In this document: positions 2,299 through 57,165 of the stretch, in pieces
Layout: every line of letters begins with the position of its first letter
Position numbering within the stretch: position 1 is the first letter of the stretch
Position numbers and translations under genes: made by a program
Virus record (IMG/VR): IMGVR_UViG_3300046006_000628
Location: 1-57,165 of that record
Source of the DNA: a virus
Lineage: Duplodnaviria > Caudoviricetes
Direction: 5' to 3' (one strand)
DNA length: 57,165 bases
The notes under the pieces: model-generated
The model's input: only the letters and a program-made list of their open reading frames with translations
What the model was told of the DNA's origin: nothing
Database searches by the model: none

Positions 2299-3165
2299 AT
2301 GACCACACATCTCTCCGACCGTGCGCTGCTGGTGCAGCTTAACGTATCCCAGTGGACAGCACGCAAGCTGGACAAGAAGGCCACCCGCGAGGTGGCCGAC
2401 GCCAACTATGCCAGCCGTGACGCTGGTAACTACAACAAGAAGCTGCTGCCCATGAGCGACAGCTTGGCTAACATCCACACCATGACCGGCGACATCCGGA
2501 AGGAGTTCTACACCAACACCCTGCCGTGGGGGCTGGAGAATACCCACATGCTGCCGACCTCTAACTACCTACAGTTCATGACGACGTTCCGTAAGCGCAA
2601 GTCGGAGTGGGAGACTGCGGTGCGTAAGTTCCTCGTAGACTACCCGTCTCATCAGATCACAGCGCAGCGCTTCCTTGGTAACCTCTACAACCACGAGGAT
2701 TACCCTGACGTCAGGGACCTACAGCGCAAGTTCAACATGGACCTCGTGGTTCTGCCTGTCCCGACTAATGACTTCAGGGTGCAGCTTGCTGACGATGAAC
2801 TGTCCAGCATCCATGCTGACATCGAACGGCGGATCGAAGAAAGCTCTGGGCTGGCTATGAAAGAGGCTTGGCAGAGGCTTTACGACCGGGTTAAACATAT
2901 GGTCGAGCGCCTTGCTAAGCTCGACGATCCCAAGTCTCGCTTCCATGAGAGCACGTTGGAGCACGTGACTGAACTGTGTGCCATCCTGCCTCGACTGAAC
3001 TTCACTGACGACCCGAACCTCGAAGCGATGCGGCAAGAGGTAGAGGGTAAGCTGGCTGGTCTGAGCAAGGATGCCGTGGTCAATGACCCTGTGTTCCGCC
3101 AGACCAAGATCGACGAGGCCAACGACATCATGGCCAAGATGGGTAGCTTTATGCAGGGCGCTTGA
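2299..3165 (+). CDS. DUF3150-like protein, partner of the AAA+/vWA module
   Basis: LLVQLNVSQWTARKLDK, TLPW, YPD, LNFTDDPNL motifs recalled from this family; located between the AAA+ and vWA genes. Confidence 0.7.
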   Translation: MTTHLSDRALLVQLNVSQWTARKLDKKATREVADANYASRDAGNYNKKLLPMSDSLANIHTMTGDIRKEFYTNTLPWGLENTHMLPTSNYLQFMTTFRKRKSEWETAVRKFLVDYPSHQITAQRFLGNLYNHEDYPDVRDLQRKFNMDLVVLPVPTNDFRVQLADDELSSIHADIERRIEESSGLAMKEAWQRLYDRVKHMVERLAKLDDPKSRFHESTLEHVTELCAILPRLNFTDDPNLEAMRQEVEGKLAGLSKDAVVNDPVFRQTKIDEANDIMAKMGSFMQGA

Positions 3166-3219: not shown

Positions 3220-3696
3220 ATGCTGACCGTCGATTATCTTAACACGCTGTTCGAGTATAGAGACGGCGCATTGTATCGCCGTCTGTCTCGGGGTCCGCAA
3301 AACGCAGGTGTTCGCGCAGGGACTAAGACTGCGAAGGGGTACATACGTATACGTGTCGATGGTACGTTCTATATGGAGCACAGGCTGGTGTTCTTCATGC
3401 ACCATGGTAGGTGGCCTAGTGTTACTGATCATGTCAACGGTGTCAGAGATGATAACCGTATAGATAATCTACGTGAATGCAGTCACATACAGAACGCGTA
3501 CAATGCACGAGGTAAGGGTACTAGAGACTTACCAAAAGGCGTACACTACCACAAGAAGCGCGGTAAGTACGTGGCCTATGTATCGGTGAACGGTAAGCGT
3601 ATAAATGTAGGTGAGTTTAACACGGCAGACGCTGCCGTGGCAGCAGTAGAACATAAACGTACAGAGTTCCACGGCGAGTTCGTCAAACACCAATAG
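3220..3696 (+). CDS. HNH endonuclease with AP2-like C-terminal domain
   Basis: HRLVF...DHVNGVRDDNRIDNLREC...N; KGVHYHKKRGKYVA...HGEF; lower GC than flanks. Confidence 0.88.
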   Translation: MLTVDYLNTLFEYRDGALYRRLSRGPQNAGVRAGTKTAKGYIRIRVDGTFYMEHRLVFFMHHGRWPSVTDHVNGVRDDNRIDNLRECSHIQNAYNARGKGTRDLPKGVHYHKKRGKYVAYVSVNGKRINVGEFNTADAAVAAVEHKRTEFHGEFVKHQ

Positions 3697-3707
3697 GAGT
3701 AATACAT

Positions 3708-4835
3708 ATGCAGTCTCTTGATACCCTCAAGACGAGGCTGGCCAAAGCGAAGACGTCTTTGGTACTTGAGTACCCATTCATAGGGTCCATCGCCCTTGGT
3801 ATGCCGCACTCCTACCAAGAAGGCATCGGTACTGCCTGCACCAATGGCAAGCGGGTGCTCTATGATCCCAAGTTCGTGTCCGATCTGAGCGACGACCAGC
3901 TTAAGTTCCTCGTGGCTCATGAGTGTATGCACCCCATGCTGGAGCACAACTTCCGTCGGCAGTCCCGCAATCCGCAGAAGTGGAACAAGGCTGCTGACTA
4001 CGTCATCAACCAGCTGCTGACCGACGAGGGCATCGGTGCCTTCATCGAGGGTGGTTGCCTCAACAAGGACCTGTACACTGCCGGTGAGGGTATGTCCGAG
4101 CAGATTTACAACCTGCTGCCTGACGATGAGGGCGATGGTGAGGGCAATGGTCCCGGCGGCACTGGCATGGACCTCGAAGACGGTGAGGGCACCGCTACTG
4201 ACCAAGCGCAAGCGGCTGCGGAGTGGAAGGTCAAGGTAGCTCAGGCTGCACAGGCTGCCAAGATGATGGGTAAGCTGTCTGCTGGCATGGCCCGGCTGGT
4301 CGATGCTATCCTCAACCCCACTGTGGACTGGCGCGAGGCGCTTCAGAAGTTCGTGGTCAAGCACAAGACCGACGAGCGCAGCTTCGCACGGCCCAACCGT
4401 AGGTTCCTGTCACAAGGGCTCTACATGCCAAGCCGGACGGGTGAGATGATGGGTCCGATGGCCTTCCTTGTGGACTGCTCAGGCTCTGTCGATGACGAGC
4501 AGCTGGCTCAGATGGCAGCAGAAATCCGCACTGTCCATGAGGACCTGCGTCCCGAGAAGCTGCACGTTGTCTACTTCGACAGCAGCGTGTCTCACTACGA
4601 GTGCTACGGTCCGGATGACAGCCTCGACATCCGCTTCCATGGTGGTGGCGGCACTGATGTGTGCGCTGCCTTCGACTACCTCGACGACGAGGGTTACTCT
4701 AACGATGTTGTGTGCACGGTGGTCCTGACTGACGGCTACACCCCCTACCCTGATGGCTCTACGACCCCGGTCATCTGGGCCATGACAACAGACCACGTGG
4801 CCCCCTTCGGTGAGCACTGCCGGGTGAGGGTCTGA
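3708..4835 (+). CDS. DUF2201-like putative metallopeptidase with vWA domain
   Basis: TACTNG, HECMH (HExxH), MIDAS DCSGS, GGGGTD, LTDGY. Confidence 0.88.
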   Translation: MQSLDTLKTRLAKAKTSLVLEYPFIGSIALGMPHSYQEGIGTACTNGKRVLYDPKFVSDLSDDQLKFLVAHECMHPMLEHNFRRQSRNPQKWNKAADYVINQLLTDEGIGAFIEGGCLNKDLYTAGEGMSEQIYNLLPDDEGDGEGNGPGGTGMDLEDGEGTATDQAQAAAEWKVKVAQAAQAAKMMGKLSAGMARLVDAILNPTVDWREALQKFVVKHKTDERSFARPNRRFLSQGLYMPSRTGEMMGPMAFLVDCSGSVDDEQLAQMAAEIRTVHEDLRPEKLHVVYFDSSVSHYECYGPDDSLDIRFHGGGGTDVCAAFDYLDDEGYSNDVVCTVVLTDGYTPYPDGSTTPVIWAMTTDHVAPFGEHCRVRV

Positions 4836-5439: not shown

Positions 5440-5998
5440 CGTCGAGTTCGACAAGTGGTGGGACTGTGTCGAGGCTGAGTTCAAGGAGGATATGAAGGAG
5501 GTCGGTATCTACGTCGATCGGATACACTTCTCTGGCTTCTCCTGTCAGGGTGACGGTGCCTGCTTCGTAGGTAAGCTGGACAACCCGCAGGTCTACCTCG
5601 ACCATCACCACAAGGATCAGTACCCTATGATCCGCAAGCTGTTGGAGAATGGCGGCTCGATCTACACCAGCTGCAAGCAGACGGGGAACTACTACCACGA
5701 GAACAGCGTCGAACTCTGGATAGACCACGACCTGCTGCACGCAGTGATAGACCAACCGACCGAGTTCCACGTCGAGGTGGTTGAGGCGTGGGACAAGCTG
5801 CTCGATGTTGAGATGACAGACTTCGACACGGACATGACTGAGCAGTGGAAGACCTACATGCGGGACCTCTACCGCAAGCTCGAAGCTGAGTACGACTACC
5901 TCACAAGCGAGGATGCTATATGGGACACGATCGTAGCTAACGAGTTGGACACAGACGCAGACACACATGACACAGAGGAACTTAACTATGCAGCTTGA
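5387..5998 (+). CDS. Conserved acidic phage protein (FSGFxxQGDGAxF motif)
   Basis: FSGFSCQGDGACF; YRKLEAEYDYLTSE; D/E-rich. Confidence 0.75.
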   Translation: MVTSSQRTSLLEKYRYINVEFDKWWDCVEAEFKEDMKEVGIYVDRIHFSGFSCQGDGACFVGKLDNPQVYLDHHHKDQYPMIRKLLENGGSIYTSCKQTGNYYHENSVELWIDHDLLHAVIDQPTEFHVEVVEAWDKLLDVEMTDFDTDMTEQWKTYMRDLYRKLEAEYDYLTSEDAIWDTIVANELDTDADTHDTEELNYAA

Positions 5999-17420: not shown

Positions 17421-20294
17421 ATGGACACAATAGAGTTCTTCGGCCGGGTCCTTCCGGACACCGGTTACTATGTAGCCACGGTAATAAACCCAGATAGGAG
17501 AACCCAGAAGTCATACGAAACGATCGACGAGCTAACCAACGCCGTCATCCGGATCGACATCGCAGGTGGTAACGTCTACTACGCAATGTCCTCGTTCATC
17601 GAGGCGGGCAACCGCAAGCAGATCAACGTAGCTCGGACCAAGTCCCTCTTCATCGACATCGACTGTGGTGAAGAGAAGCCCTTCGCCGACCAGCGCGAGG
17701 GTGCCAAGGCACTGAAGGCGTTCTTAAAAGCCAGCCAGATGCCTGCTCCTATGATCATCTCGTCAGGCCGCGGCCTCCATGTGTACTGGCCCCTGACAGA
17801 AGCACTGCTACCCGAAGACTGGAAGCCACTGGCTGACGCACTCAAGGCCGCAGCGCTCCACCACAAGTTCGATATCGATAAGGCCGTGACCGGCGACAGC
17901 GCCCGAGTTCTCCGCCCGATTGGGACACACAACCCGAAGAACGGTGCCGAAGTAATCCTGATCAAGGACGCACCGGACAACGACCCCGCCACCCTACGCA
18001 CGCTGCTCTCCAAGTTCATGACACGCACCTCGGTGCCGTCCGCACCCCGTGGGTTCGCAGCACAGGGCAAGCCTGTGTCCAGCATTACGGGAGCACTTGC
18101 GTCCGGGCAGGAGTACGAGCCGGCTGATCCAGACAAGGTGATAGCAGGGTGCGCTCAGGTCCGGTGGGCCGTGACCAACCAGACAGACGTAGAGGAACCC
18201 TTCTGGTACGCCCTGATGGGCGTGGCTGCCTTCTGCGATGGGCCAGAAGCTACTGCCTTGACATGGTCAGATCAGCACCCCGGGTTCGACTACTCCAAGA
18301 CCATCCTCAAGGTGGAGCAGTGGCGTAAGCAGGCGACAGGCCCCACCACCTGCAAGAAGTTCAAGGACCTGCGTGAGAGCGGCTGCAAGAAGTGCCCCTT
18401 CGCCGGCAAGATAACCACGCCCGGCCAGATCGGCCGCACGATGGTGGAAGCAGAGGGCCCAGTCGAGGATGCCCTCGACATCGTGGCACGGGAAGTGCCT
18501 ATGCCCCCAGCCTTCAAGCGGCTGGCCAAGGGCGGTATCGCCCAGACTATCGACGACACAGACATCGAGGTAGTGCCGTTCGATCTGTATCCTGTGAGCT
18601 ACGGCATGGACGAAGCCCTTGGCTACGAGGTAGTGCGGTTCCACTGGAAGCGCCCACACAGAGGCTGGCAAGAGCTCAAGTTCCGGCAGGCGTACCTTGC
18701 CGATGGGAACCGCGAGTTCCCTACTGCCATCGCTGACCAAGGGATCGTGCTGCCCTTCAAAGCCCTGACCGAGAGGTTCCAGTACATGCTACGCTCATAC
18801 ATGGATGAACTCCGCACGCTGCGGACGACGACCAACCTCTACACCACCCTCGGGTGGAAGGAAGACAACACGCTGTTCGTGATAGGTGACAAGCAGGTTC
18901 GTAAGGACGAGCAGGGACAGACAGTCACTGAGGATGTGGTGCTATCCTCAACGGTACGCCGTGTCAGCAACGGGATGTACGGAACCAAGGGTGAGCACGA
19001 GAAGTGGATCAAGGCCACCAAGCTGATGGAAGTGGCTGAACTGCACGCGCACATCTTCGCCCTTGGGGTATCCATGTCAGCGCCGCTGTACCAGTTCACC
19101 GGCCTCAAGGGTGCAGTCCTCTCACTCTACGGGCCGACGGGCAGCGGCAAGACACTGGCCCAGCTGGCGCAGCAGTCAGTATGGGGCAACCCAAGCGAGC
19201 TACACTTCCAGTCCAAGTACACCCAGAACGCCCTGTTCACCCGGCTGTCGTTCTACTGCAACCTCCCCATGACGATCGACGAGACGACCATGATGCCCGA
19301 CAAGGAGGTCGGTGACTTCATCTACGGTGTCACGCAGGGACGCGACAAGAGCCGCCTCAACGCCCGGATCGAGGAGCGTGAGCCCAAGACATGGGCCGCG
19401 CCTGTGACGCTGTCCACCAACAGACCCATGAGCGGTAAGCTACTGGCTGCCTCGTTCGAGACGGACGCGCAGATGGCCCGCCTGCTGGAGCTATCGTTGG
19501 AGAGCTCTGACATCTTCACCAAGAGCACGGATGTAGGGCGCAAGTTCTACAATACGATCACCCGGAACTACGGTCATGTTGGTGGGTTCGTCCTCACATG
19601 GCTGGTGGAGAAGGGCGAGGCTGCGGTTACCAAGATGATCGCCGACCACATGGTCGCGTTCGAGAAGAAGTACAAAGTTCGGTTCACCGGTGAGGAGCGG
19701 TACTGGGAGGTGATGATCGTACTCGCCGACCTGATGAACAAGATCGCTGTCGAGAAGGGCTGGGTCGATTACGACTACGCCAAGGCCACTGAGTACGCCC
19801 TGCTGCAGGCTGGTATGATCCGGCGCAGCATCAGCGCCGCCAAGCTGGACGAGTTCGATCTGCTGGGTGAGTACCTCAACGAGATGCGTGACACCACTGT
19901 CACCGTAGCCCACACGGATAACGGCGCGTCCACCCCGCTGGACCCGAACAGCCTGCCCCGCGGCGAGGTCAGGATCAGGTTCGACCTCTATCGCAAGACG
20001 ATCGGTGCCCCCTATGACCGCGGCATCCTGCTGCTCGACCGGACCCACTTCCGCAAGTGGATGGCCAGCCGTGGTGGAGACTGGAAGAAGTTCAGCGACA
20101 CGCTCGCTACTGAGAACATCGACGCCACACCATCATCCAAGAAGGCCATGATGGGGCGGCTGACCCCGCTGCGCCTGCCGCAGACCTATGTGGTAGGGAT
20201 CAACCTTGCGCACGACCGCCTCAGCGACCTGCTCAACAACCAAGACAATCGGCCGGAGAGCATGACGCTGGGGCAGTTGCGGGCTGTGCTTTAG
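17421..20294 (+). CDS. Primase (AEP/RepB-like) fused to DUF927 and a helicase domain
   Basis: FIDID, SSGRGLHVYW, RVLRPIGTHN, Cys cluster, Walker A GPTGSGKT, TIDE. Confidence 0.88.
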   Translation: MDTIEFFGRVLPDTGYYVATVINPDRRTQKSYETIDELTNAVIRIDIAGGNVYYAMSSFIEAGNRKQINVARTKSLFIDIDCGEEKPFADQREGAKALKAFLKASQMPAPMIISSGRGLHVYWPLTEALLPEDWKPLADALKAAALHHKFDIDKAVTGDSARVLRPIGTHNPKNGAEVILIKDAPDNDPATLRTLLSKFMTRTSVPSAPRGFAAQGKPVSSITGALASGQEYEPADPDKVIAGCAQVRWAVTNQTDVEEPFWYALMGVAAFCDGPEATALTWSDQHPGFDYSKTILKVEQWRKQATGPTTCKKFKDLRESGCKKCPFAGKITTPGQIGRTMVEAEGPVEDALDIVAREVPMPPAFKRLAKGGIAQTIDDTDIEVVPFDLYPVSYGMDEALGYEVVRFHWKRPHRGWQELKFRQAYLADGNREFPTAIADQGIVLPFKALTERFQYMLRSYMDELRTLRTTTNLYTTLGWKEDNTLFVIGDKQVRKDEQGQTVTEDVVLSSTVRRVSNGMYGTKGEHEKWIKATKLMEVAELHAHIFALGVSMSAPLYQFTGLKGAVLSLYGPTGSGKTLAQLAQQSVWGNPSELHFQSKYTQNALFTRLSFYCNLPMTIDETTMMPDKEVGDFIYGVTQGRDKSRLNARIEEREPKTWAAPVTLSTNRPMSGKLLAASFETDAQMARLLELSLESSDIFTKSTDVGRKFYNTITRNYGHVGGFVLTWLVEKGEAAVTKMIADHMVAFEKKYKVRFTGEERYWEVMIVLADLMNKIAVEKGWVDYDYAKATEYALLQAGMIRRSISAAKLDEFDLLGEYLNEMRDTTVTVAHTDNGASTPLDPNSLPRGEVRIRFDLYRKTIGAPYDRGILLLDRTHFRKWMASRGGDWKKFSDTLATENIDATPSSKKAMMGRLTPLRLPQTYVVGINLAHDRLSDLLNNQDNRPESMTLGQLRAVL

Positions 20295-23200
20295 TCGAAC
20301 CCAATCAGTTCGTTGGTGAGTTCAACCGCCTGTTGGTTGTTCTTACCGACGGACTGCATGAACCGCTGTGTGGCCGACATGTTGGCGAGTTTGTTGAGGC
20401 GCTGGTAGTTCTTCTCGAAGTTCTTGATCTCCAGAAGTGTGCCCTTGTTGACCTCGTTCCACTCTTTGACAGTGCGCCGGATGGATGCGGCCGTGGCCTT
20501 GTCACCAGACATCTCAGCTTTGAGCAACGCAGTGCGGAACTTGGTCACCACTTGCTTCTGGTAGTTCGTCTCACGCTTGGCCAGACGGATCACCTCGTAC
20601 TTCGACGCCACGGACACCGGTGTGAACCCGAGGACCCGGCCAATAAGCATACCCGTGGTCAGGTCTGGGTCGATGACGTAGCCGCGCTTGTCGATCACAG
20701 CCCCAGCGGAGTTGTAGGCCACGGCGTCACCGAGAGCACGCAGGATGGTGATAGGTCCACCGCGCATCGCATCCACTACCGTGGTTGTATCAGAGAACGG
20801 TGCTGCAGCGAGTTGGGAACCGCCTGTGAACGTGCCCTCGACGAACCCCCACGCAGGGCCGAGGACTTCTCTTACGGTGGCAGACAGCTCTTGTCCGGGC
20901 AGGAAGCCGGCGGTGCCGGGGAGGAAGTCTCCCGTGCCAAACCTACCCGCCACGTCGCTACCCAGCATGGAGGACAGAACGCCCTTCAAGATGTAGGGCG
21001 ATGCACCCGGCCAAATCTCGTCGATGAGGCGCGCAAGTTCCATGCGAACGCTGCCGGAAGTCGATCCTGTCCGCTGCAGTATGGTGTCAATGAAGTCCTC
21101 CCCGTCCTCAGCGAACGGCATACCAGCAAGCCCAGACGCAAGAAGGAGGGGGGCGATCATCATCGCCTTACCCGTAAGGCTCAACCGACTGAGCGTCTGG
21201 ATCGTCGTGGTTGGCCAGACCTTATACATGTAGAGGAACGACTGGAACCCCGACCGCCACACGGCAGGACGGGCCTTGGCACCATAGTCGCCGAGTGTGA
21301 GAAGCACACCCTGCGTAGCGAAGTCCGATGCTCTTGCGTGGATTCGCTTGTACTCAGCCGCTGTCAGTTTGTCGTTCGGGGCCTTACCGATCGCACTGGT
21401 CTGGCGTTGCCACTCCACGCGGAAGGCAGCGAGCGCAGCGGAGCGGCGCGTAGCTTGCTCGGACGACACGTAGAAGAACATCCACTTATCCAGTGCCTTC
21501 CTTACCGCTGGGTTCGTAGTGAAACCGCGCGAGGCACCGAGCAGACTATTGGCCTGCGCTGGTGTGAGGATACCGCTTAGGGTTTCTTTGCCGATGAACT
21601 CGGCTTCGGGTTTGGTCACATTCGGGTCGGTTTCCAGCCCGTCTGCTACCTGCAACCAGTACTTTCCAGTGTGCATTTTTAGCGCACGCTCAGAGAAGGA
21701 CAGACCACCCGAACCGCCCACGTCAGACACAGCCTTCAGGTACTGCGTGTAGGCGTTTGTAATACCCGCACCGCCGCCGAATCCGTTCTTCTCATTGTAG
21801 GTTCCCAGCCACGGGATGAAGTTGGTGAAGGGGCCGATGTTGTTCATGATCGGCTGCGTGAACGTACCACCCAGTTGCGACGCACCTGCCCACCGGCGGA
21901 CCCACGAGGCTACAGGACCAGAACCCCAGTCAGTTTCGTTAACATCACGGTTGCCGTTGATGAAGGCCATCATGCTCTGGCCTTCAGAGTAGAACTTGTT
22001 GCCGAGGTTCACTGACATGCCGTTCACCTTCGTGATGGTCTTACCCATCTTGTAGGCGTAGTCAGTGTACTCCCGCTTGGCGAGGTCCCTAGCACCTTCG
22101 CTCGCATTGGGGTTTACCAGCGCGGCGTCGTACGCTTTCTTCAGGTCGTCTAGTCTTTTGGTGTCACCGAACCACAGCTTGCGGCTGCCCGGCAGCTTCA
22201 GGTTCATCACCTTGTCTAGGGCCGGACGCATCTTGATCTTCGCGATCAGTGCAGAACGGCTATCCACGTGGCGAGCCATGGCTTCCATTGCGGTGACGCC
22301 GCCCTGCACTTCGTAGCCGGGGTTACCTGTCTGCTGCAGGCGCTTACGCGCCCGGGCGTCCTGCGCCGTCATCGCGACGATGATCTTCTCCAACTGGGAT
22401 GGCTTGATGTTAAGCCCGAACCGCTGGGCCCCGCGAAGGAACTCGTGGACGTTTAGCTCCAGTGAAGTATGGACCCCCGATGCCGCCGCGCTTACCTCGA
22501 AGCGAAGCTCAACAGACTGCGATGTGAAATCGCTCTTACCGTCTCTGCGTCCCTCGACTTTGTACACCCGCTTGGTCGTGCCGTCCTTGAGCGTGATGAT
22601 CTCGACGTCTGTGGTGCCTGCATCCACCGGCGTTGCGGTGTCCGACAGCGTGGCGTTGGCAAGGCTGGCGAGCGTCGTGGCTTCTTGGGCAGTACCGAAC
22701 ACACGGTAGGCTGCTTGGCCACGGGCATCTTCCGACAACTGTATGAACTCGTCGGTCCCCGGGACATAGGCAACCAAACGCATCTGGAACTGTTCGTCCT
22801 TGCGTACGATTGGGGTGTAACCCTGAGCCAGCATCTGGCGGACGCTCTCTTCTGCGCTGCTATACGAGCGCTCCGAGGCACCGATGTCCGTGATGGTTTT
22901 CTGCAGGAGGAACTCATTCTCCGCGGTTCTAGTTATGCGCTTACGCAGACCAACCAGTTGGGCGATGAAGTCGTCCGCCAGCTTGTCCTTGAAGTACACA
23001 CGGAGCGCGTCCTCCTTGGTGGTGTCGAATCCCTTAGCGATGAAAGCCTCATTCAGTATCTTTACGAACTCCGCAGCGGCTTTGGCGCTTCCATCGGTGG
23101 CTACTACGTTGCCTTCTACGATTTTCGAGCCGACGCTATACAACTCGTAGTGTTTGTCCATAGCCTGCCGAAGCATGGCTTCTTCTTTACCGGTGATTTT

Positions 23201-26200
23201 ATCTGTATCTGAGGTCAGCATGGACCCCACGGCTTCTATACCGTTCTTCCTGTCCTCTACCAGCGCCTCGTAGTTTGCTCGCACAAACTCCACATCGACC
23301 ATCTGCTCCACTTCGCGCACTGCGAGGTATGACTTCCAAGTCGGATGGGCCTTGTTCAGTTCGTCGGCGATCTTCTTATAGCGGTCGTCCTTGGCCAGTA
23401 TGGCTTTGGCTTCCGCTATCTCCAGCGTGCCAGCTTCGGCGTAGGCAGCGATCGTATCTTCGTTGGGCTTAACAGTGTCGCCCACGATGGTAAACATACG
23501 GGTGGGTTTGCCGGCATCCTTCAGGGCCTTGGTCACACTGGCAATCCGGGCCTCGACTTTACCGCGGATGTCGTCCTGCTGGCCGTAGTTCAACCTGCTG
23601 GCAGCCAGTTGCTCTGTCTCCGTGATACCGCCCACGACTTTGATACCGGCGATCCGGACCTCGCGGTCGAGTGCGTAGCGCAGTATTGCGTCGCTACGGT
23701 TCCTGATGTCAGCTGTTGTCTCTCCGCCCTTGGATAGGATTTCGTTTTGACGGGCCGATCCGGCGTTATCCAGTGCGTTGAACCCGGTCAGACTGAAGGC
23801 TTTGCGGAGTATGTTCTCCGCGTTGAGGGACAGTTTCTCTGTGTACGGCTTGAGGGCGGTGGTTATTTCATCCACGGTCCGGGGTAGGCCATGCACGTTG
23901 TAGATAAGCCGATCTACACTGCTGTTGTCGGTTGCAAAGCCCGACTTGAAGCGGCCCGTACCCTGCTGGTCGGTCCCAGACTCGATGTCCCTGATGTCCG
24001 TGAAGATGCTCTCGACGGTGAACAGGCTGTCCTGCTTGCCATTGCGGACGTAGCGCCGTGACATGCGCAGCAGGTGGCGCACCATGTCGTCACTGAACCG
24101 GAAGCCCACTGCATTGAGCGCAGTCTTCATAGCGCCCGCCAGCCGGCGCAGGAGCGACATGTCCAGCACGGCGGCATAATCAGCTAGGAACTCTTCGGTT
24201 GCCTCTCCACGGCTCAGCCCACGCACTTCTACGGCTTGGTCTACGATGGCGGCTACGCGTGGATCGCTGTTGTACACCTGATCCATGGCTGCGTTGAACG
24301 TACCAGCAGGCATGACCGACCGCAGGCCGTAGTGACCAAGGGCTTCGTGCGCGAGGACGAACCGGAGTTGCTGCTCAGTGCCGATGCGGTCGGTGAAAAT
24401 GATGACCTGCCCGTCACCAAAGGAGTAGCCCATGGCCGGGATGGTGTCGAAGTCACCCTGCGGCCGGGCCGCGACCGCTTGCTTGTAGAGCTCTGGGTTC
24501 TTGGCTTTGAGGTCCGCTTGGCTACGGGCCACGGTGATCTTGGGCGCACGCGCGAACTTCGAAGTGAAATTCTTGATCAGCATCTGCACTCGACCAGTAG
24601 CCAAGGGAGTTACAGGTTTGCCGTCGAGGTCCACAACCCCGTCGATTGTGTTCCATGTGGAAAGGAACGGCTTGCCGTCCGACTCAACGGGGACGACAAT
24701 CCGATTGCCCTTTTTGTCTGCCACCCTGTTCGGGTTGCCGTCAGCGTCGGCAAAGTCCACCAGCCTGAACTCTTTAGTTCCGACAGCGAGTACGGCTTTT
24801 GAGTCCTTTGCACGTAGTGCGGTGACCAGCCGTTTGAACTCAGCCGTCCAACCCGGCTGAGTGTTGGCTGTTTTGGCCCCGGAGTTCACATCCTTAATCA
24901 GTTGGCTCAGTGCAGCTACGTCTTGGTCCCCACCAACACGCGTGGCGGTTTCTTCGGCGATCTGTTCCGGGGTTTTTCGCGCGGGCGGTCGGCCCCCTTT
25001 GATCCGGTCCAATAGATCGACCTTCTCGCCGCGCGGCTTAGCCTTCGCGTCAAGCACAGGCGTGTCAACCTCAGCCTCGACCTCAGCCTCGACCTCAGCC
25101 TCGACCTCGGGCTCAGTGACAACGGGTTTGGGTTTAGGTCTGGGTGCGGGTGTGACCGCAGGTTCGGCGGCTTTAGCGGGGGCCTGTACCTCGGGTGCGG
25201 GTGTGACCACTGGTGCTGCCTGTCCCGTTGCCCCTTTGGGTTTGGGTGCATCGCCCTTCCTACCCCCCTTAAGGACTCGACTTTCTTGTGTGCCCTGATT
25301 GGCCTTCGCTGGTGGTGTGGTTTCAGGCGGCGGAGCCGTAACTTCGTCTACTACTTTCGATACTTTATCGGGGTTAGCCTCAATGGCAGCATCGACCCCA
25401 GCCATATCCTCCACCCCAAGGCGCTCCACGAGGGATATGTTCTGTTCATCTGTGAGGCCAGCGACGCGCTTACGCACAGCAGCTTTCTTGACAGCAGTCT
25501 GCTGAGCCTTGGTCAGGGCTTTTGGTTTGGCGGCGGGTGCGGCTGCCTTGGGGGTCTTCATCTTGTTCAGGCGGAGGTTTTTGTAGAGTGCCTCCGTCTG
25601 ATTACCTTCTTGGACCGCTGCCATCCATTTGCGCTGGGCCTTGGGTGTAAGATCGCGAAGTGTTGTCGCGCTGAAGTTCTTACCGGACTGCGGCCGGAAT
25701 CTCTCCCATGCAACTTCCGACTCCACGAAGGCATCCTGCAGAAAGAGCGCTGTATCCATGCGGGCGGGCTCGTCTTGCGCCGTTTTCTGTGCGTAAGCTT
25801 CCTCGATCTCGGCTTGCGTTTGCCGTCGCCCAAGTCCTTCCTGCCGCTGCGCTTCTAGGTCTGCTGCCTCTTGATCTGCGGCAGTCTGCTCTGCCGCAGC
25901 TTGCCGGGCAGCAGCGGCCTCTCTTTGCGCTAAGGCAGTGCGAAGGCCCTCAGCCATTGCTCCGCTAGGCGGGGCAGGCAGGCGCGCAGTGGATGCACCC
26001 GGTGCTAGAAGTGTAGCCCCCCTAGTACCTAAGGGTGCCGTGGTAGCCGGAGCGGTTGCAGCGGGTGCAGCACCGGGCGCAAGACCCGCAGGAGTACCGT
26101 AGTAGTCAGCCACAGGAGCAATACCCGGTGCGGGCAGCGCAGCAAGAGTTGGAGGTGCGGGAAGTCCAAGGAGCCGAGCTTGGCCGGCCGGGACCGCGTC

Positions 26201-27868
26201 GATTACGTCACCGGTAATCGGGTCCCTACGGTCTCCGTACGGCAGTGTGATTTTACCTGACTGCCGGTCCTCGGGCTGCAGCCCTCCGGTGGCACGACGC
26301 ATAAGTCTCAACTGCTGCTCTGTCAGAGGTGTGACGTTACGGCCAGTCGCTGTCTCCGGCAGGTCCATTACTTGCCCCGGACCGGTGGGGGGTACTTCGA
26401 TCGGTCCAGACCCGGGGAAGTAGGGTAGCCCCAGTGGTTGGAACGACTGCTGACCATACAGTTCAGATGACGCAGTCTCGGTCGGCGGAGGGAGAGCCAG
26501 CAGTGGTCGTGTTTGTTCAGTAGCAGTAGTGGTCAGGTCGAGCGGCTTATCCGTAGGGATAGCTGGCTTAGGGCCGGGCCCGTTGAACGCACCGACAGTA
26601 GCACCAGCGCCGAAGCCCAGAACCGCACCGGATACACCGGCGAGCTTCAGGTTCTCCATGTAGTTTTCCGACATGTGCGGAGCTAGGAATTTCCAGTCCG
26701 CTGGAGCTAGGTTCTCCCGAACAATCGGATCGAACAGCGCCATCTCCATGAAGGTCTGCATGGTTTCGGTAACGGCTTCCGCGGCACCCGTTTTTATGCC
26801 TTCGACACCTGCACGACGAAGCAGGTTGCGGGATGTAGCGGACGACGCTTGCTGAAGTGCGTTGCGTGCTGTGGGGGACAGCAGCGAACCGAGTCTACCG
26901 GCTGCGCCACCAGCGCCGTACATGTCGAGCACGGTATTGAATAGGGTACCACCGACGATCTCGGCACGGACCTCCGGGTCCGTTACGTCCATCCCGTTGC
27001 GCTCAGCTGCATCAAAGAAGCTGGTCATGTGGATCGGCATGGTAGTGATAGCAGCGCCACCGCGGGGTCCAAGGGTACGTGCTGCACTAGCCACGGCCCC
27101 AGTCTTACTAGCAGCCCCTAAGGCGCTGGCTGCCCACCCGCCGAAAACGGCAGAGAACAGCATCGGCACAGCTTCGATTACTGTGTCCGTTACTTTCTCG
27201 CCGAACGAACTGCGCTGCGAGATCAGGTACGAACGAAGCTGCTCGTTCTCAGATTCCCCGAAGACATCCTGCGCCGCCTGACGCATGGGCTCCCCGATGC
27301 TCTCTGCACCAGCGAGTGTGAGTAGACTTCCCGGCAGGGCCGTAAGTCCATAGGCGATCTGCTTGACACCACGACCCAGTAACTCACCGGTGGATCGCCT
27401 ATCAGAGAACGACGACAGGTACCGATCGAACGACCCTTCTGGCAGTGAGGTCCACCCCTCCCCTTGCGGTCGAGTAGTGTTGGCTGGCTTGGCAGCAGCG
27501 GTTAACGCAGACTGGGCGTCGTCAGCCTTGAACGCTTGGTCACCGGCGAACATCTCGTTCGTAGACTGGTTGAAGTAGACCGTGGCTGGGGAACTTACTG
27601 CGGCTTGCGGAGCTCTGACAGGCGCGTTGAACATACCTTTAATACGTTCGTCGTTGCGTGCGCGGAAGGCGTCGAGTCCACTAATAGCCTCTGGCGCATC
27701 AGGCATAACAGCGCGGCCTGCGACCGCAGTGTCCATGTCAGTCGGTTGGATCGACCCTAGTCCAGTGCGTGTGGCTGGGTCGTCACCGAAGCGGGCAGCC
27801 GGGACGCGGAGTCCCGCCCCCATGGAGGCCATGAGCGGGTTGGTGATCGAGAGTCCGCGGTCCGCCAT
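20291..27868 (-). CDS. Giant internal virion/ejection protein (2525 aa) with zincin-like motif; polyvalent-protein-like
   Basis: FVLAHEALGHYGL...EEFLA; degenerate PLxRFG-like YTPIVRK; last gene of the structural arm. Confidence 0.75.
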   Translation of the reverse strand: MADRGLSITNPLMASMGAGLRVPAARFGDDPATRTGLGSIQPTDMDTAVAGRAVMPDAPEAISGLDAFRARNDERIKGMFNAPVRAPQAAVSSPATVYFNQSTNEMFAGDQAFKADDAQSALTAAAKPANTTRPQGEGWTSLPEGSFDRYLSSFSDRRSTGELLGRGVKQIAYGLTALPGSLLTLAGAESIGEPMRQAAQDVFGESENEQLRSYLISQRSSFGEKVTDTVIEAVPMLFSAVFGGWAASALGAASKTGAVASAARTLGPRGGAAITTMPIHMTSFFDAAERNGMDVTDPEVRAEIVGGTLFNTVLDMYGAGGAAGRLGSLLSPTARNALQQASSATSRNLLRRAGVEGIKTGAAEAVTETMQTFMEMALFDPIVRENLAPADWKFLAPHMSENYMENLKLAGVSGAVLGFGAGATVGAFNGPGPKPAIPTDKPLDLTTTATEQTRPLLALPPPTETASSELYGQQSFQPLGLPYFPGSGPIEVPPTGPGQVMDLPETATGRNVTPLTEQQLRLMRRATGGLQPEDRQSGKITLPYGDRRDPITGDVIDAVPAGQARLLGLPAPPTLAALPAPGIAPVADYYGTPAGLAPGAAPAATAPATTAPLGTRGATLLAPGASTARLPAPPSGAMAEGLRTALAQREAAAARQAAAEQTAADQEAADLEAQRQEGLGRRQTQAEIEEAYAQKTAQDEPARMDTALFLQDAFVESEVAWERFRPQSGKNFSATTLRDLTPKAQRKWMAAVQEGNQTEALYKNLRLNKMKTPKAAAPAAKPKALTKAQQTAVKKAAVRKRVAGLTDEQNISLVERLGVEDMAGVDAAIEANPDKVSKVVDEVTAPPPETTPPAKANQGTQESRVLKGGRKGDAPKPKGATGQAAPVVTPAPEVQAPAKAAEPAVTPAPRPKPKPVVTEPEVEAEVEAEVEAEVDTPVLDAKAKPRGEKVDLLDRIKGGRPPARKTPEQIAEETATRVGGDQDVAALSQLIKDVNSGAKTANTQPGWTAEFKRLVTALRAKDSKAVLAVGTKEFRLVDFADADGNPNRVADKKGNRIVVPVESDGKPFLSTWNTIDGVVDLDGKPVTPLATGRVQMLIKNFTSKFARAPKITVARSQADLKAKNPELYKQAVAARPQGDFDTIPAMGYSFGDGQVIIFTDRIGTEQQLRFVLAHEALGHYGLRSVMPAGTFNAAMDQVYNSDPRVAAIVDQAVEVRGLSRGEATEEFLADYAAVLDMSLLRRLAGAMKTALNAVGFRFSDDMVRHLLRMSRRYVRNGKQDSLFTVESIFTDIRDIESGTDQQGTGRFKSGFATDNSSVDRLIYNVHGLPRTVDEITTALKPYTEKLSLNAENILRKAFSLTGFNALDNAGSARQNEILSKGGETTADIRNRSDAILRYALDREVRIAGIKVVGGITETEQLAASRLNYGQQDDIRGKVEARIASVTKALKDAGKPTRMFTIVGDTVKPNEDTIAAYAEAGTLEIAEAKAILAKDDRYKKIADELNKAHPTWKSYLAVREVEQMVDVEFVRANYEALVEDRKNGIEAVGSMLTSDTDKITGKEEAMLRQAMDKHYELYSVGSKIVEGNVVATDGSAKAAAEFVKILNEAFIAKGFDTTKEDALRVYFKDKLADDFIAQLVGLRKRITRTAENEFLLQKTITDIGASERSYSSAEESVRQMLAQGYTPIVRKDEQFQMRLVAYVPGTDEFIQLSEDARGQAAYRVFGTAQEATTLASLANATLSDTATPVDAGTTDVEIITLKDGTTKRVYKVEGRRDGKSDFTSQSVELRFEVSAAASGVHTSLELNVHEFLRGAQRFGLNIKPSQLEKIIVAMTAQDARARKRLQQTGNPGYEVQGGVTAMEAMARHVDSRSALIAKIKMRPALDKVMNLKLPGSRKLWFGDTKRLDDLKKAYDAALVNPNASEGARDLAKREYTDYAYKMGKTITKVNGMSVNLGNKFYSEGQSMMAFINGNRDVNETDWGSGPVASWVRRWAGASQLGGTFTQPIMNNIGPFTNFIPWLGTYNEKNGFGGGAGITNAYTQYLKAVSDVGGSGGLSFSERALKMHTGKYWLQVADGLETDPNVTKPEAEFIGKETLSGILTPAQANSLLGASRGFTTNPAVRKALDKWMFFYVSSEQATRRSAALAAFRVEWQRQTSAIGKAPNDKLTAAEYKRIHARASDFATQGVLLTLGDYGAKARPAVWRSGFQSFLYMYKVWPTTTIQTLSRLSLTGKAMMIAPLLLASGLAGMPFAEDGEDFIDTILQRTGSTSGSVRMELARLIDEIWPGASPYILKGVLSSMLGSDVAGRFGTGDFLPGTAGFLPGQELSATVREVLGPAWGFVEGTFTGGSQLAAAPFSDTTTVVDAMRGGPITILRALGDAVAYNSAGAVIDKRGYVIDPDLTTGMLIGRVLGFTPVSVASKYEVIRLAKRETNYQKQVVTKFRTALLKAEMSGDKATAASIRRTVKEWNEVNKGTLLEIKNFEKNYQRLNKLANMSATQRFMQSVGKNNQQAVELTNELIGFD
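25068..25109. repeat. 12-bp tandem repeat encoding (EAEV)n
   Basis: acctcagcctcg x3 within a Pro/Ala-rich linker. Confidence 0.7.
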
Positions 27869-54385: not shown

Positions 54386-54580
54386 ATGACCAAAGAAACC
54401 ACAGGTGCGCTGCGCGATCGCCAGCGTAAAGTTGACGCCTACGTATCCAAGGAAGGCCAGAGGTCCGCGCAGCGCTACCTTGACGCCCATCCGCAGCCCT
54501 TACACAACTGGAACGCCATAGGGCAGGCGATCATAGGCGCGATCGCAGTTCTCCTCTTCCTTTACTTCCTCTTCGCTTAA
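54386..54580 (+). CDS. Small early membrane protein
   Basis: AAGGA RBS; C-terminal TM AIIGAIAVLLFLYFLFA. Confidence 0.7.
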   Translation: MTKETTGALRDRQRKVDAYVSKEGQRSAQRYLDAHPQPLHNWNAIGQAIIGAIAVLLFLYFLFA

Positions 54581-54584
54581 CACT

Positions 54585-54615
54585 AGCCCCATCCGAGAAA
54601 TCGGGTGGGGCTTTC
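54585..54615 (+). terminator. Intrinsic terminator
   Basis: AGCCCCATCCGA-GAAA-TCGGGTGGGGCT-TTC. Confidence 0.65.
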
Positions 54616-54619
54616 GCAT

Positions 54620-55290
54620 GTCCGCTGCGCAGCAACCACAGGTGTGTAAAGGAGCGACGCGCAGCGCGCGATCGCGTGTTAAGTTTTGCTCGTTACACTC
54701 GCCATATGTCGGGAGCCTGTAGTTCGCGCTAGTGCTACGTGTAGGTTTACATATACCCATTTAGTCGGGGGTCTGTACCCTCTATAATGTAAAGCAAGCC
54801 TGTACTTTACACCCAGTAAGCTATTGAAAACAAACAACTATCTATTTTTGCTTTACATCAGCTTTACATTCGTCGTGTCAGGCTGTGCTGCCCTACCTGT
54901 GTTAAGTTAAGGTAATTTCCCAATGAAACCAAGGGCTTACCGGTGTTAACCAGAAGTAGAAAGTTAGTAAAGTATCTATACTATATATATTATATACGTT
55001 TTTTTAGATGATGCTCACCTATTTTCGTGAAAATTTCAGCTTTGTTAAGTTAGTAACTTAACACCTTTACACGTAAAGCTCCGACCCTTTCACAATTTGT
55101 GGGGGGTATCCTCTGATTTTTCGTAGATATTGTAGATAGTAAACCGAGTTTCTCAGCATTATCAATCACTTACACTATCTATTTTCCTAAATCGTGTAAA
55201 GATACTTCACCTACTTTTGGTGTTAAGTTTAGATAGTTACAGATACTTCGCGCATCCACTCGCGCAAAAACCCCCCCTTACCCCCCCAGC
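54620..55290. other. Non-coding AT-rich control region (candidate origin or packaging/terminus region)
   Basis: No credible ORF; CTTWACA and ACTATCTA repeats, palindromes, IHF-like sites, TATATATATTATATA tract. Confidence 0.6.
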
Positions 55291-55292
55291 CC

Positions 55293-55321
55293 TTGACATC
55301 CTCGGCAGGCCGTGCTAACTT
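55293..55321 (+). promoter_or_regulatory. sigma70-type early promoter with extended -10
   Basis: TTGACA-N17-TAACTT, with TG-n preceding the -10. Confidence 0.65.
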
Positions 55322-55409
55322 GAAAATCCCGATCGACCCCGTCCAACCGAAACTTGACATGGTCCGATCCGGGAAACTTAACACACACATATCAATAGGA
55401 ACTACCACC

Positions 55410-55685
55410 ATGGCTAATCGCTGGACCAAACTCGCTGCCCTTTCCGCCGACCTTTACACCAAGACGTTGACCGTCCGTCCTTTACATCGGTCCTATATCA
55501 GCCAAGCTGACGCCCTTTACGACTACACCGTAGGTCATGACTTCGTCGTGGTTGACCAGTCGTCCCCCCTTAACAACTGCCTGATCACTGTCTGTGATCG
55601 TCACGAGTTGAAGCGGACCTACGACCTGACCCACCTTAACATCAAGTACAATCCCGGCCTTACCTCGATCGAGGTGGCACTCTGA
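55410..55685 (+). CDS. Hypothetical early protein
   Basis: AGGA RBS; TGATG coupling to the next gene. Confidence 0.65.
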   Translation: MANRWTKLAALSADLYTKTLTVRPLHRSYISQADALYDYTVGHDFVVVDQSSPLNNCLITVCDRHELKRTYDLTHLNIKYNPGLTSIEVAL

Positions 55686-55894
55686 TGCGCCTCTCCTTTA
55701 CACCAACTCACCCCGACTACCTTGTGGTAGTTCCCGACTATCACCCCTCCTATGGACTGGCTGACAACACGAGAGCCAGAGTGATATGCCAAGTTAGGGT
55801 AGACAAGCTCCCTGTTAAGCAGGCTGCCGCCCTTAACAACCTCAGCCCGTCCACCGTCTACAAATGGCTGTTCGCCATCAACAAGGGTCTTTAA
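55685..55894 (+). CDS. Small HTH protein
   Basis: LPVKQAAALNNLSPSTVYKW. Confidence 0.7.
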   Translation: MRLSFTPTHPDYLVVVPDYHPSYGLADNTRARVICQVRVDKLPVKQAAALNNLSPSTVYKWLFAINKGL

Positions 55895-55895
55895 C

Positions 55896-56705
55896 ATGTA
55901 CGGATCACCGTCGTTCTCCGCCATCGGCATCTCTAGCTACGACTCTGCTCTCCGGAAGTGGGAGAGCATCAAGCCGATCCGTGGTCGTAAGGACCAGAAC
56001 AGTCGGCCCCTCTACCGTAGGGGGGACGACACCAAGACCATCCGTCAGCTTAACAACGGCAGCATTGCCTTCCGGCTCCACTCCACTGACGTGGTGACCT
56101 TCCATAAGGAGGGTGCTGTGGACCTCAGCCCCTATGCCTCAGTGACGACCAATGCCTTTGTCGGGGCTGTCTTCGGTTGGGGTACCCCCATCCATACTTA
56201 CTGGTCAGACCGTGACTACCGCTTGCCTAACCATGTCACTGAGGTCGGCGGTCGGTACTACCACACCCCCAGCTTCGCCTCTCTCTACAGGGACGACACC
56301 ACCCACAAGTGGGTTATGGCGGCTGGCAACGAGCCGTTCGAGGTCACCAGACTGGACAAGACCTTGACCAAGGAAGCACTCAACGACACCAACTACAACC
56401 AGTTCAAGCTATGGCTGGCCACTCAGATCAGGCTGGGCCTCGACCCTCGTCAGGGTGACAGTTGGCGTAGTGGTCCCTACGACTGGTCGGATCGTGAGGT
56501 CGGCCAATACCTGACCGTTGGCCCAGAGGGCTGGGACGAGTTGGTCAGACGTATGTCCAAGCGCTGTGAGGTCAGCCATGAACTGGGGGTGCTGCGCCGT
56601 GCTGTCTACAAGTATGCTGGGGCTGTCACCGTCACCGAGGTTCCTTACTTCGAGAACATCACCGAAATGAGCAGCGCCTTCTCCTCGACCCGTAAGTATG
56701 GGTAA
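55896..56705 (+). CDS. Hypothetical early protein (269 aa)
   Basis: Long ORF; SYDSA...KPIRG, LHSTDVVTF motifs. Confidence 0.75.
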   Translation: MYGSPSFSAIGISSYDSALRKWESIKPIRGRKDQNSRPLYRRGDDTKTIRQLNNGSIAFRLHSTDVVTFHKEGAVDLSPYASVTTNAFVGAVFGWGTPIHTYWSDRDYRLPNHVTEVGGRYYHTPSFASLYRDDTTHKWVMAAGNEPFEVTRLDKTLTKEALNDTNYNQFKLWLATQIRLGLDPRQGDSWRSGPYDWSDREVGQYLTVGPEGWDELVRRMSKRCEVSHELGVLRRAVYKYAGAVTVTEVPYFENITEMSSAFSSTRKYG

Positions 56706-56706
56706 G

Positions 56707-56768
56707 GTCGAAACCACCTTCGGGTGGTCTGGGTAGGGTGGCTCCCTGCTCACTGATGAGACAAGCCA
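56707..56768 (+). ncRNA. Type II hammerhead ribozyme with loop I / 3' pseudoknot; predicted cleavage after C56729
   Basis: GTC-GAAA-CCACC-TTCG-GGTGG-TC^TGGGTAGGG-TGGCT-CCCTGCTCA-CTGATGA-GAC-A-AGCCA: all core nucleotides and stems I-III are present. Confidence 0.9.
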
Positions 56769-56793
56769 ACACACCTCAACACATAGGTACAAC

Positions 56794-57165
56794 ATGCGAC
56801 CCACATTGCTCTCCGAGACGCTCAAGTCCCTTATCTCAATCAACCGGACCACGTCGATCGAAGGTCCTCCCGGTGGTGGTAAGACCACACTGGTCCGCGG
56901 TGCGACTAAGGACCTCGACCTGCACTACATCGAGAAGCATCTGCCGACCATGCTGGTCGAGGACTTCGGTGTGCCCGTCCTTGGGTCAGCCTACCTGACC
57001 TACCAGATTCCGGACTGGTTCCCCGCCAAGGGGTCACCCTATGACGATGGTCGTGGTGGTGTGCTCTGTATGGACGACGCCTCTCAGGCTCAGGCTGACA
57101 TTCAGAAGGTGCTGGCCAACATCTGCCAAGCCCGTAACCTCCACGGGGTGCCTATCGCTGACAAC
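56794..57165 (+). CDS. MoxR-like AAA+ ATPase, N-terminal part (continues through the origin to 748)
   Basis: MRPTLLSETLKSLISINRTTSIEGPPGGGKTT...PDWFP...VLCMDD. Confidence 0.88.
   Translation, partial: MRPTLLSETLKSLISINRTTSIEGPPGGGKTTLVRGATKDLDLHYIEKHLPTMLVEDFGVPVLGSAYLTYQIPDWFPAKGSPYDDGRGGVLCMDDASQAQADIQKVLANICQARNLHGVPIADN
57039..57165. repeat. 127-bp terminal overlap (copy of 1-127)
   Basis: Exact identity with the contig start. Confidence 0.95.

Follow-up and report, generated by a model that had tools for sequence, protein, structure and literature searches.

The subject of this study is a short element near the 3' end of the virus genome in IMG/VR record IMGVR_UViG_3300046006_000628 (Duplodnaviria; Caudoviricetes), whose 57,165 nucleotides (nt) were analyzed in full and are called the window below. 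At positions 56707-56768 of the plus strand, between an open reading frame (ORF) of 269 amino acids (aa) and the gene of a MoxR-like AAA+ ATPase, the sequence is confirmed as that of a genuine pseudoknotted type II hammerhead ribozyme. Its core is intact, its helices and its pseudoknot are preserved by compensatory changes in related viruses, and copies recur in many phages, on the sense strand and in gaps between genes. On the best reading, the window copy is predicted to cleave itself after C56729. In such a case, the co-transcribed hammerhead is likely to cut the mRNA shared by both genes and to insulate the two cistrons from each other.

Architecture of the ribozyme

According to the initial annotation, the gap separating the 269-aa ORF from the AAA+ gene encodes, on the sense strand, a type II hammerhead with a pseudoknot, and this description holds. 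Every element on which it was based (stems, core, GUC triplet, and the complementarity of loop and tail) is found at the following positions:

56707-56768, plus strand: ribozyme proper, from the sequence; model matches cover 56706-56771
56707-56709, plus strand: 5' strand of stem II, GUC, pairing with 56760-56762; C56709 is C11.1
56710-56712, plus strand: core residues G12, A13 and A14, from the sequence
56713-56728, plus strand: stem III hairpin of 6 base pairs (bp), A15.1-U16.1 (A56713-U56728) followed by CCACC/GGUGG with a C(UUCG)G loop, from the sequence and the minimum free energy (MFE) fold
56729, plus strand: C17, with the predicted scissile bond 56729/56730, from the hammerhead consensus position
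56730-56752, plus strand: stem I hairpin of 9 bp (56730-38 with 56744-52) with loop I, UGGCU, at 56739-43, from the sequence
56753-56759, plus strand: core residues C3 U4 G5 A6 U7 G8 A9 (CUGAUGA), from the sequence
56760-56762, plus strand: 3' strand of stem II, GAC; G56760 is G10.1 and forms the G10.1-C11.1 pair with C56709
56764-56768, plus strand: 3' tail AGCCA, the full complement of loop I (56739-43), giving a 5-bp pseudoknot

Stem I includes two G-U pairs, G56732-U56750 and U56734-G56748. The distances to the flanking genes are likewise as described: the upstream TAA ends at 56705, and the AAA+ ATG at 56794 lies 25 nt beyond 56768.

The assignment to type II follows from the way the strands leave the molecule. 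Loops close stems I and III while stem II opens to the flanks, and since the 5' and 3' ends exit through stem II, the element is a type II hammerhead. The invariant core is complete, including H17 (C56729), and is aligned by Rfam with high posterior probability. The pseudoknot of the class joins loop I to bases 3' of stem II by at least 4 bp (Perreault et al. 2011); here it comprises 5 bp.

Detection by sequence and structure models

In a permissive Rfam scan, positions 56706-56770 match RF02276 (Hammerhead_II) over the full length of the model (1-66 of 66) with 35.7 bits, corresponding to E = 7.2e-6 on 301 nt and to E = 0.0014 when the whole window, both strands and all 4227 families are considered. 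The Rfam search proposed in the initial annotation thus gives a full-length Hammerhead_II match, but with a score 1.3 bits below the gathering score. The gathering threshold of 37 bits is an operating cut-off for annotation and reflects no structural feature. Being sub-threshold, the window copy would be overlooked by standard annotation pipelines.

Two further approaches do not depend on this cut-off. A strict descriptor, which demands CUGANGA, GAAA, a stem II of at least 2 bp, a stem III of at least 4 bp, a stem I of at least 5 bp, and UH, has a single match in the window, at 56707-56768, and none on either strand of 50 shuffled windows. We also built a covariance model, R1, from six relatives, leaving out the window copy; it recovers the latter at 56706-56771 with 70.6 bits and an E-value of 8.5e-16. 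The MFE fold yields the same three helices as the hammerhead. No other ribozyme class was found by the permissive scan of the whole window, and a tRNA scan of the window found none. Four other weak Rfam matches (ar14, MIR5534, isrD, and isrG) are far below their cut-offs and were taken as chance.

Copies in related viruses and covariation

With the AAA+ protein as query, 80 related viral loci were fetched. The strict descriptor gives 43 matches in 31 of these 80 loci, all on the gene strand. R1 gives 52 matches in 82 sources, all on the plus strand, and 153 in 80 further loci. All of these 205 copies are intergenic and lie in sense orientation, and no locus carries copies on both strands. In 20 related loci, 12 copies pass the RF02276 cut-off with 37.7-46.4 bits. 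Copies in the same position as the one in the window, i.e., before the AAA+ gene, exceed it in L009 (40.0 bits), L008 (39.2), L032 (41.9), L028 (41.0), and L020 (40.6).

Two alignments were evaluated for covariation, A2 with 40 distinct sequences and A3 with 125 distinct sequences from the second locus set. Paired cells amount to 97.3% in A2 and 97.7% in A3, and compensatory changes occur in 20 of 24 and 22 of 24 pairs, respectively. None of 500 shuffles reaches the observed values on any measure, and controls with a slid structure are paired to 27-48% over both alignments (28-48% for A2). All nine pairs of stem I show compensatory changes in both alignments. For stem III, this holds for 5 of 7 pairs in A2 and 6 of 7 in A3, while stem II is paired to 100% and 99.7%, with two of its three pairs compensatory. 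The pseudoknot is paired to 91.7% with 4 of 5 pairs compensatory in A2, and to 97.5% with 5 of 5 in A3; examples are a loop GGUU with a tail AACC and a loop UGACC with a tail GGUCA. Covariation in related phages had been named as a check in the initial annotation, and it is observed: helices and pseudoknot are kept through compensatory changes.

The core is nearly uniform. GAAA is invariant across the A2 rows as printed, and in CUGAUGA it is position 7 that commonly varies. Exceptions are a change of U4 to C in L144:809 and one base inserted after A9 in L072:2582 and L131:1460. In the subfamily to which the window copy belongs, stem II (GUC/GAC), the loop (UGGCU), and the tail (AAGCC(A)) are nearly fixed.

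Before the AAA+ gene, two subtypes are seen, one with a 23-nt stem I hairpin and the pseudoknot, the other with a 17-nt stem I hairpin and no obvious one. The latter occurs in more distant relatives (L072:2582-2644, L073:2588-2646, L079:2596-2651, L081:2596-2656, and L082:2593-2655), where no obvious complementarity of loop I and tail was seen on inspection.

At the level of DNA identity, the window has a sole match in 50,697 phage records. This match, with 83.6% identity, is confined to the 61-nt ribozyme and falls in a gap of Streptomyces phage Hank144 that carries no annotation. The proteins encoded next to the Hank144 hammerhead are unrelated to those of the window; a homology between the upstream gene of the window and Hank144 gp75, which precedes the most similar hammerhead, was considered and rejected (best BLASTP E-value 2.5). 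Within 6 kb of Hank144, Rfam gives seven further type II hammerheads with 36.9-59 bits. The descriptor finds eight in this stretch (L001, NC_054661.1 44173-50232, reverse complement), all on the gene strand:

1100-1163, gene strand: hammerhead, descriptor
1341-1405, gene strand: hammerhead, descriptor
1837-1899, gene strand: hammerhead, descriptor
2065-2141, gene strand: hammerhead, descriptor
3000-3064, gene strand: hammerhead, descriptor
3649-3710, gene strand: hammerhead, descriptor
4353-4417, gene strand: hammerhead, descriptor
5790-5857, gene strand: hammerhead, descriptor

They occupy gaps between small hypothetical genes. Two of them precede gp75 in tandem, and one extends over the annotated start of gp73, with an overlap of approximately 35 nt. 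The public record has no RNA feature among its annotations of this 6-kb stretch. Arrays of up to 10 same-strand copies are also present in L131 (874-4610) and L144 (809-6036), and further arrays in L128 and L143. Their spacing of roughly 300-700 nt brackets nearly every small gene.

Additional relatives come from Logan contigs of three RNA-Seq-labelled runs of one wastewater study; they are mostly 90-95% alike and share 0.07-0.18 of the stretch. A look-up of RNA data sets containing the window itself listed none. A contig of 200 nt matches 56707-56768 alone, with two differences and unrelated flanks. Another contig, compared at 55903-56751, keeps the neighboring genes and the region from 56751 onwards; the 269-aa gene is replaced in it by 822 other letters, and its ribozyme differs in stem III. 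The ribozyme behaves as a module common to different gene contexts.

Genes accompanied by the ribozyme

Among the related loci, 77 hold the start of the AAA+ gene, and in 22 of these a hammerhead ends 12-54 nt before the ATG. The AAA+ N-termini of these 22 loci are 45-81% identical to that of the window. Most other loci have no ribozyme there; a small conserved gene runs directly up to the AAA+ gene, and the ribosome-binding site is an ordinary one of the GGAG type. Within the 130 nt before the AAA+ start, this arrangement is seen in L012-L014, L017, L021, L022, and about 40 more. The product of this small gene has a conserved C-terminus (...S/T-Y/F-G-P/I-D-H-x-K/R-Y/F...), and the gene is absent at that position in the window.

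Homologues of the 269-aa protein are encoded in 20 of the 80 AAA+-related loci, with 34-51% identity in a local tblastn search. With coordinates read by eye, 17 of these 20 loci have a hammerhead within approximately 20 nt of an end of the gene, e.g., of the homologues at L020:1544-2320, L037:1878-2654, and L003:1865-2662. In L020 and L037-L039, hammerheads flank the gene at both ends. The hammerhead lies further downstream in L028 and L008, and L027 has none.

The signature of the subfamily was found in 104 viral stretches, 80 of which were evaluated. These 80 loci contain up to 10 R1 copies each. The AAA+ gene is present in 28 of them, 23 with a hammerhead at most 80 nt upstream, and a 269-aa homologue in 29, again 23 with an adjacent hammerhead. 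In 47 of the 80, neither gene is present. The ribozyme therefore tracks the 269-aa gene about as well as the AAA+ gene, and its presence across loci marks it as generic punctuation between genes rather than a device of the AAA+ module. A role specific for AAA+/DUF3150/vWA expression, as suggested in the initial annotation, is not supported by these figures, given 22 of 77 junctions and 47 of 80 signature loci without either gene. The further notions of a "switch" and of a "host-RNase-independent" action are conjecture; nothing found here bears on regulation.

A probable role in processing of a shared transcript

We infer the following course of events, from cleavage of this copy and co-transcription to end protection and its consequence for the two genes. 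The ribozyme would be transcribed within an mRNA shared by its two neighbors, the gene of the 269-aa protein and that of the MoxR-like AAA+ ATPase. On the plus strand of 55300-57165, a sigma-70-type scan revealed no promoter-like site, and no terminator-like site was found; the ribozyme should therefore be co-transcribed with the upstream gene. The RNA would then fold and cut itself after C56729. The upstream message would end in the UUCG-capped stem III hairpin, 24 nt beyond its stop codon, and carry a 2',3'-cyclic phosphate. The downstream message would begin with a 5'-OH, as hammerhead chemistry dictates, flush with the 9-bp stem I, the AAA+ start codon following about 64 nt further on. In bacterial RNA decay, hairpin ends, 5'-OH, and 2',3'-cyclic phosphate hinder exonucleases and the 5'-end-dependent entry of RNases. 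As separate RNAs protected by hairpins, the two cistrons would thus become mutually independent in stability and translation, and the ribozyme would serve as a naturally occurring insulator that punctuates the series of genes. In RiboJ-type synthetic insulators, engineered from a plant satellite RNA, a hammerhead before the coding sequence strips the upstream RNA and leaves a 5' hairpin. The same working model may apply to the window, a comparison made by analogy only.

Several points weigh against this interpretation. At gathering thresholds, Rfam returns no match in the whole window, because 35.7 bits fall short of the curated cut-off. The stability of the fold is ordinary (z = -0.98; 29 of 200 shuffles are at least as stable), so that energy alone would miss the ribozyme. 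The covariation counts are derived from alignments fitted to the model structure and lean towards that structure, and the loci of A3 were chosen by a pattern which fixes loop I and tail in one copy per locus. Moreover, no hammerhead is present in the 54 nt preceding the AAA+ start in 55 of the 77 relatives that hold this start, so that AAA+ expression does not require the element. The promoter scan addresses sigma-70-type sites, and N4-like relatives may use other polymerases. Cleavage of the window copy is predicted by homology, and a 2019 review speaks of the role of bacterial and phage hammerheads as unresolved (PMC6765202).

Placement behind stop codons and a possible link to translation

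The copies take a narrow position between genes. For 158 non-redundant copies, the median start is 1 nt past the previous same-strand stop, compared with 134.5 nt for random positions, and the median end is 27 nt before the next ORF start, compared with 162 nt. Among 150 measurable copies, 123 start at most 30 nt after the previous same-strand stop. Measured from the core, 106 of 154 distinct contexts (drawn from L001-L162 and the window) have a stop triplet that ends 2-5 nt ahead of G12, i.e., one that overlaps the 3-bp stem II by 1 nt, abuts it, or precedes it by 1-2 nt. A control window 14-17 nt upstream contains a stop in 24 of 154. With the requirement of an open frame of 60 codons or more, 82 of 149 stops end 1-5 nt before G12. 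The window copy has a 1-nt spacer between stop codon and stem II (56703-56709). Hank144 breaks this rule, with a stop within 5 nt of G12 in one of its eight copies and at 7-47 nt in the others. We did not find the rule stated in the literature covered by a limited search, and it may be in print; the term "stop codon" occurs nowhere in the main text of PMC3088659.

Such a placement could couple cleavage to translation, although we consider this unlikely. A ribosome terminating at the abutting stop would unwind the 5' strand of stem II together with G12-A14, and cleavage would depend on translation of the upstream ORF. A terminating ribosome reaches approximately 9-10 nt beyond the stop codon on its 3' side and would here cover the 5' half of the ribozyme. 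There is then a small chance that the ribozyme senses upstream translation instead of cutting constitutively, the fate of the AAA+ message reporting it. The excess of stops over the control, with or without the open frame, and the spacer in the window are what this explanation has in its favor. However, the tight packing of phage genomes is a plain alternative for the abutment, as packing alone puts an inserted element right after a stop. Hank144 departs from the rule in seven of eight copies, and cleavage, being irreversible, could occur co-transcriptionally before a ribosome arrives.

Mobility, ligation and loss of function as further alternatives

The recurrence of the ribozyme in unrelated surroundings raises the question of whether it is a portable module boundary, which travels with cassettes such as the 269-aa gene and, being a 60-nt sequence common to different phages, mainly serves as a recombination site or persists because it is one, with RNA cleavage being secondary. 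We regard this as rather improbable. It would account for a sole DNA match that consists of the ribozyme itself between unrelated flanks in Hank144, for the 104 signature stretches with neither flanking gene in 47 of 80 loci, for the 200-nt contig sharing the ribozyme alone and the second contig in which 822 letters replace the 269-aa gene, and for hammerheads on both sides of that gene in L020 and L037-L039. However, stems I and III differ in sequence while their pairing is kept, which indicates selection on RNA structure and not on DNA identity, and such divergent stems leave little identical DNA for recombination. In addition, all copies lie on the sense strand, which a role at the DNA level does not need.

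A fate of the cleaved ends other than separation is very doubtful. The ends might be rejoined, by the reverse reaction or by an RtcB-type ligase, so that circular or spliced RNAs arise from flanked segments. Hammerhead products carry the end chemistry required for such ligation, and in relatives of the window pairs of hammerheads flank single genes. The window, however, has a single hammerhead and therefore no flanked segment. Perreault et al. raised the possibility of ligation and report that they failed to detect spliced or circular products (PMC3088659).

Finally, a chance motif or an inactive, functionless relic is already disfavoured and hardly credible: an Rfam score under the gathering threshold, an ordinary fold energy and the many relatives without the element at the AAA+ junction fit it, but they stand against no match in 50 shuffled windows, the E-value of 8.5e-16 from a model that excludes the window copy, an intact core, and same-position copies that keep their pairing via compensatory change in relatives with AAA+ N-termini 45-81% identical.

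Relation to known hammerheads

Type II hammerheads with a pseudoknot of loop I and 3' tail, including hammerheads that flank prophage genes, are described by Perreault et al. 2011 (PMC3088659), where polycistronic constructs of about 2 kb were cleaved in vitro. For the prophage hammerheads, the same authors proposed a function in transcript processing, as favored here. The RF02276 class and the window copy have the core, the permutation, the short stem II, the pseudoknot, and the location in operon gaps of phages or prophages in common, sometimes with several copies per operon. The window copy differs from it by its score of 35.7 bits, under 37, and by belonging to a subfamily with near-fixed stem II, loop, and tail.

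Cleavage within cells has been demonstrated by cyPhyRNA-seq in Desulfovibrio vulgaris, for three type II hammerheads in the vicinity of phage-like genes, which also cleave in vitro (PMC8782182); the type II class is therefore active in cells. As in the window, their neighbors are hypothetical and phage-like genes. The D. vulgaris copies are located in prophage-like regions of a bacterial chromosome, whereas the window copy, for which cleavage is predicted, belongs to a complete 57-kb uncultured phage.

In the haloviruses HF1 and HF2, a hammerhead variant is located 13 nt before a helicase start, and a transcript 5' end has been mapped near the cleavage site (PMC3088659). The likeness lies in a hammerhead placed just before the gene of a nucleotide-binding enzyme on the replication side of the genome. 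The halovirus element, however, is structurally variant, stems from a virus of archaea, and precedes the first ORF of its transcript, in contrast to a canonical type II hammerhead 1 nt after a stop codon. A third comparison is given by the ardA gene of Agrobacterium tumefaciens, which is flanked by tandem hammerheads, with arrays found in other prophages (PMC3088659). In relatives of the window, same-strand hammerheads similarly bracket the 269-aa gene, with up to 10 copies per viral locus. ardA is an anti-restriction gene, whereas the 269-aa gene is without known function and the window carries a single copy.

The element of the window is thus an ordinary new copy of a known family. Nothing is new in kind, because the class, its pseudoknot, and its occurrence in phages were published in 2011, and the hammerhead alignments of that year may already hold members of the subfamily. 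The picture already known, with the 2011 proposal that transcripts of phage operons are processed, is unchanged. Our analysis adds a large and clean set of sense-strand intergenic hammerheads, the rule that a stop codon abuts stem II, and a recurrently bracketed 269-aa gene. The window copy probably marks a cut site of a polycistronic message in an uncultured, distantly N4-like phage group, and its recurrence before a MoxR-like ATPase gene in this group is of modest added value.

Flanking genes and genome

The record represents a complete virus genome of 57,165 bp with a terminal repeat of 127 nt. Since the ends repeat these 127 nt, the AAA+ gene starting at 56794 continues at 128-748. The genes around the ribozyme and those following the AAA+ gene are:

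55896-56705, plus strand: 269-aa upstream gene, from the ORF list; a 1-nt gap separates its stop codon from stem II
56794-57165 (continues at 128-748), plus strand: 5' part of the MoxR-like AAA+ ATPase gene, with Walker A GPPGGGKT; phrog_1297
804-1376: HNH endonuclease gene, after the AAA+ gene
2299-3165: weak full-length match to DUF3150, 17.8 bits against a cut-off of 24.9
3708-4835: VWA-like gene, firm matches to DUF2201_N and DUF2201

The AAA+ protein comprises approximately 330 aa, and matching ORFs in L009, L020, L029, and L037 have 329-331 aa. It matches phrog_1297 with E-values of 7.1e-12 and 2e-49, its Pfam AAA matches are sub-threshold, and its ATG aligns with residue 1 in relatives. 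Identity to ATPases of cultured phages is at most 32%. Many of the latter are encoded by 70-77-kb phages of Erwinia, Vibrio, Klebsiella, and Salmonella, which we take to be the N4-like group.

The 269-aa protein belongs to no Pfam or PHROG family. A feature search leads to unnamed viral clusters, one of them with a 14% share of PF23790, to be read as a lead only, and a search for related loci via exact peptide words of this protein returned nothing.

The AAA+/DUF3150/vWA module of the initial annotation is retained in part. The VWA-like gene is confirmed and DUF3150 is weak, but the module is not contiguous, as the HNH gene and small ORFs are located between the AAA+ gene and DUF3150.

Upstream of the 269-aa gene, 54580-55293 comprises about 700 nt without a plus-strand ORF of at least 40 aa. 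Terminator-like hairpins are found at 54663-80 and 55100-15 on the plus strand, and four promoter-like sites at 55021-55226 on the minus strand. Lying ahead of the ribozyme-bearing operon, this region may have a regulatory role or give rise to a non-coding RNA.

On the minus strand, 20291-27868 holds an ORF of 2525 aa, whose only PHROG match is to the C-terminal part of the 3431-position phrog_11358, of unknown function (E-value 6.6e-25). Taken together, the giant ORF, the MoxR-like ATPase, and the VWA-like gene suggest that the virus may be distantly N4-like and encode a giant virion protein.

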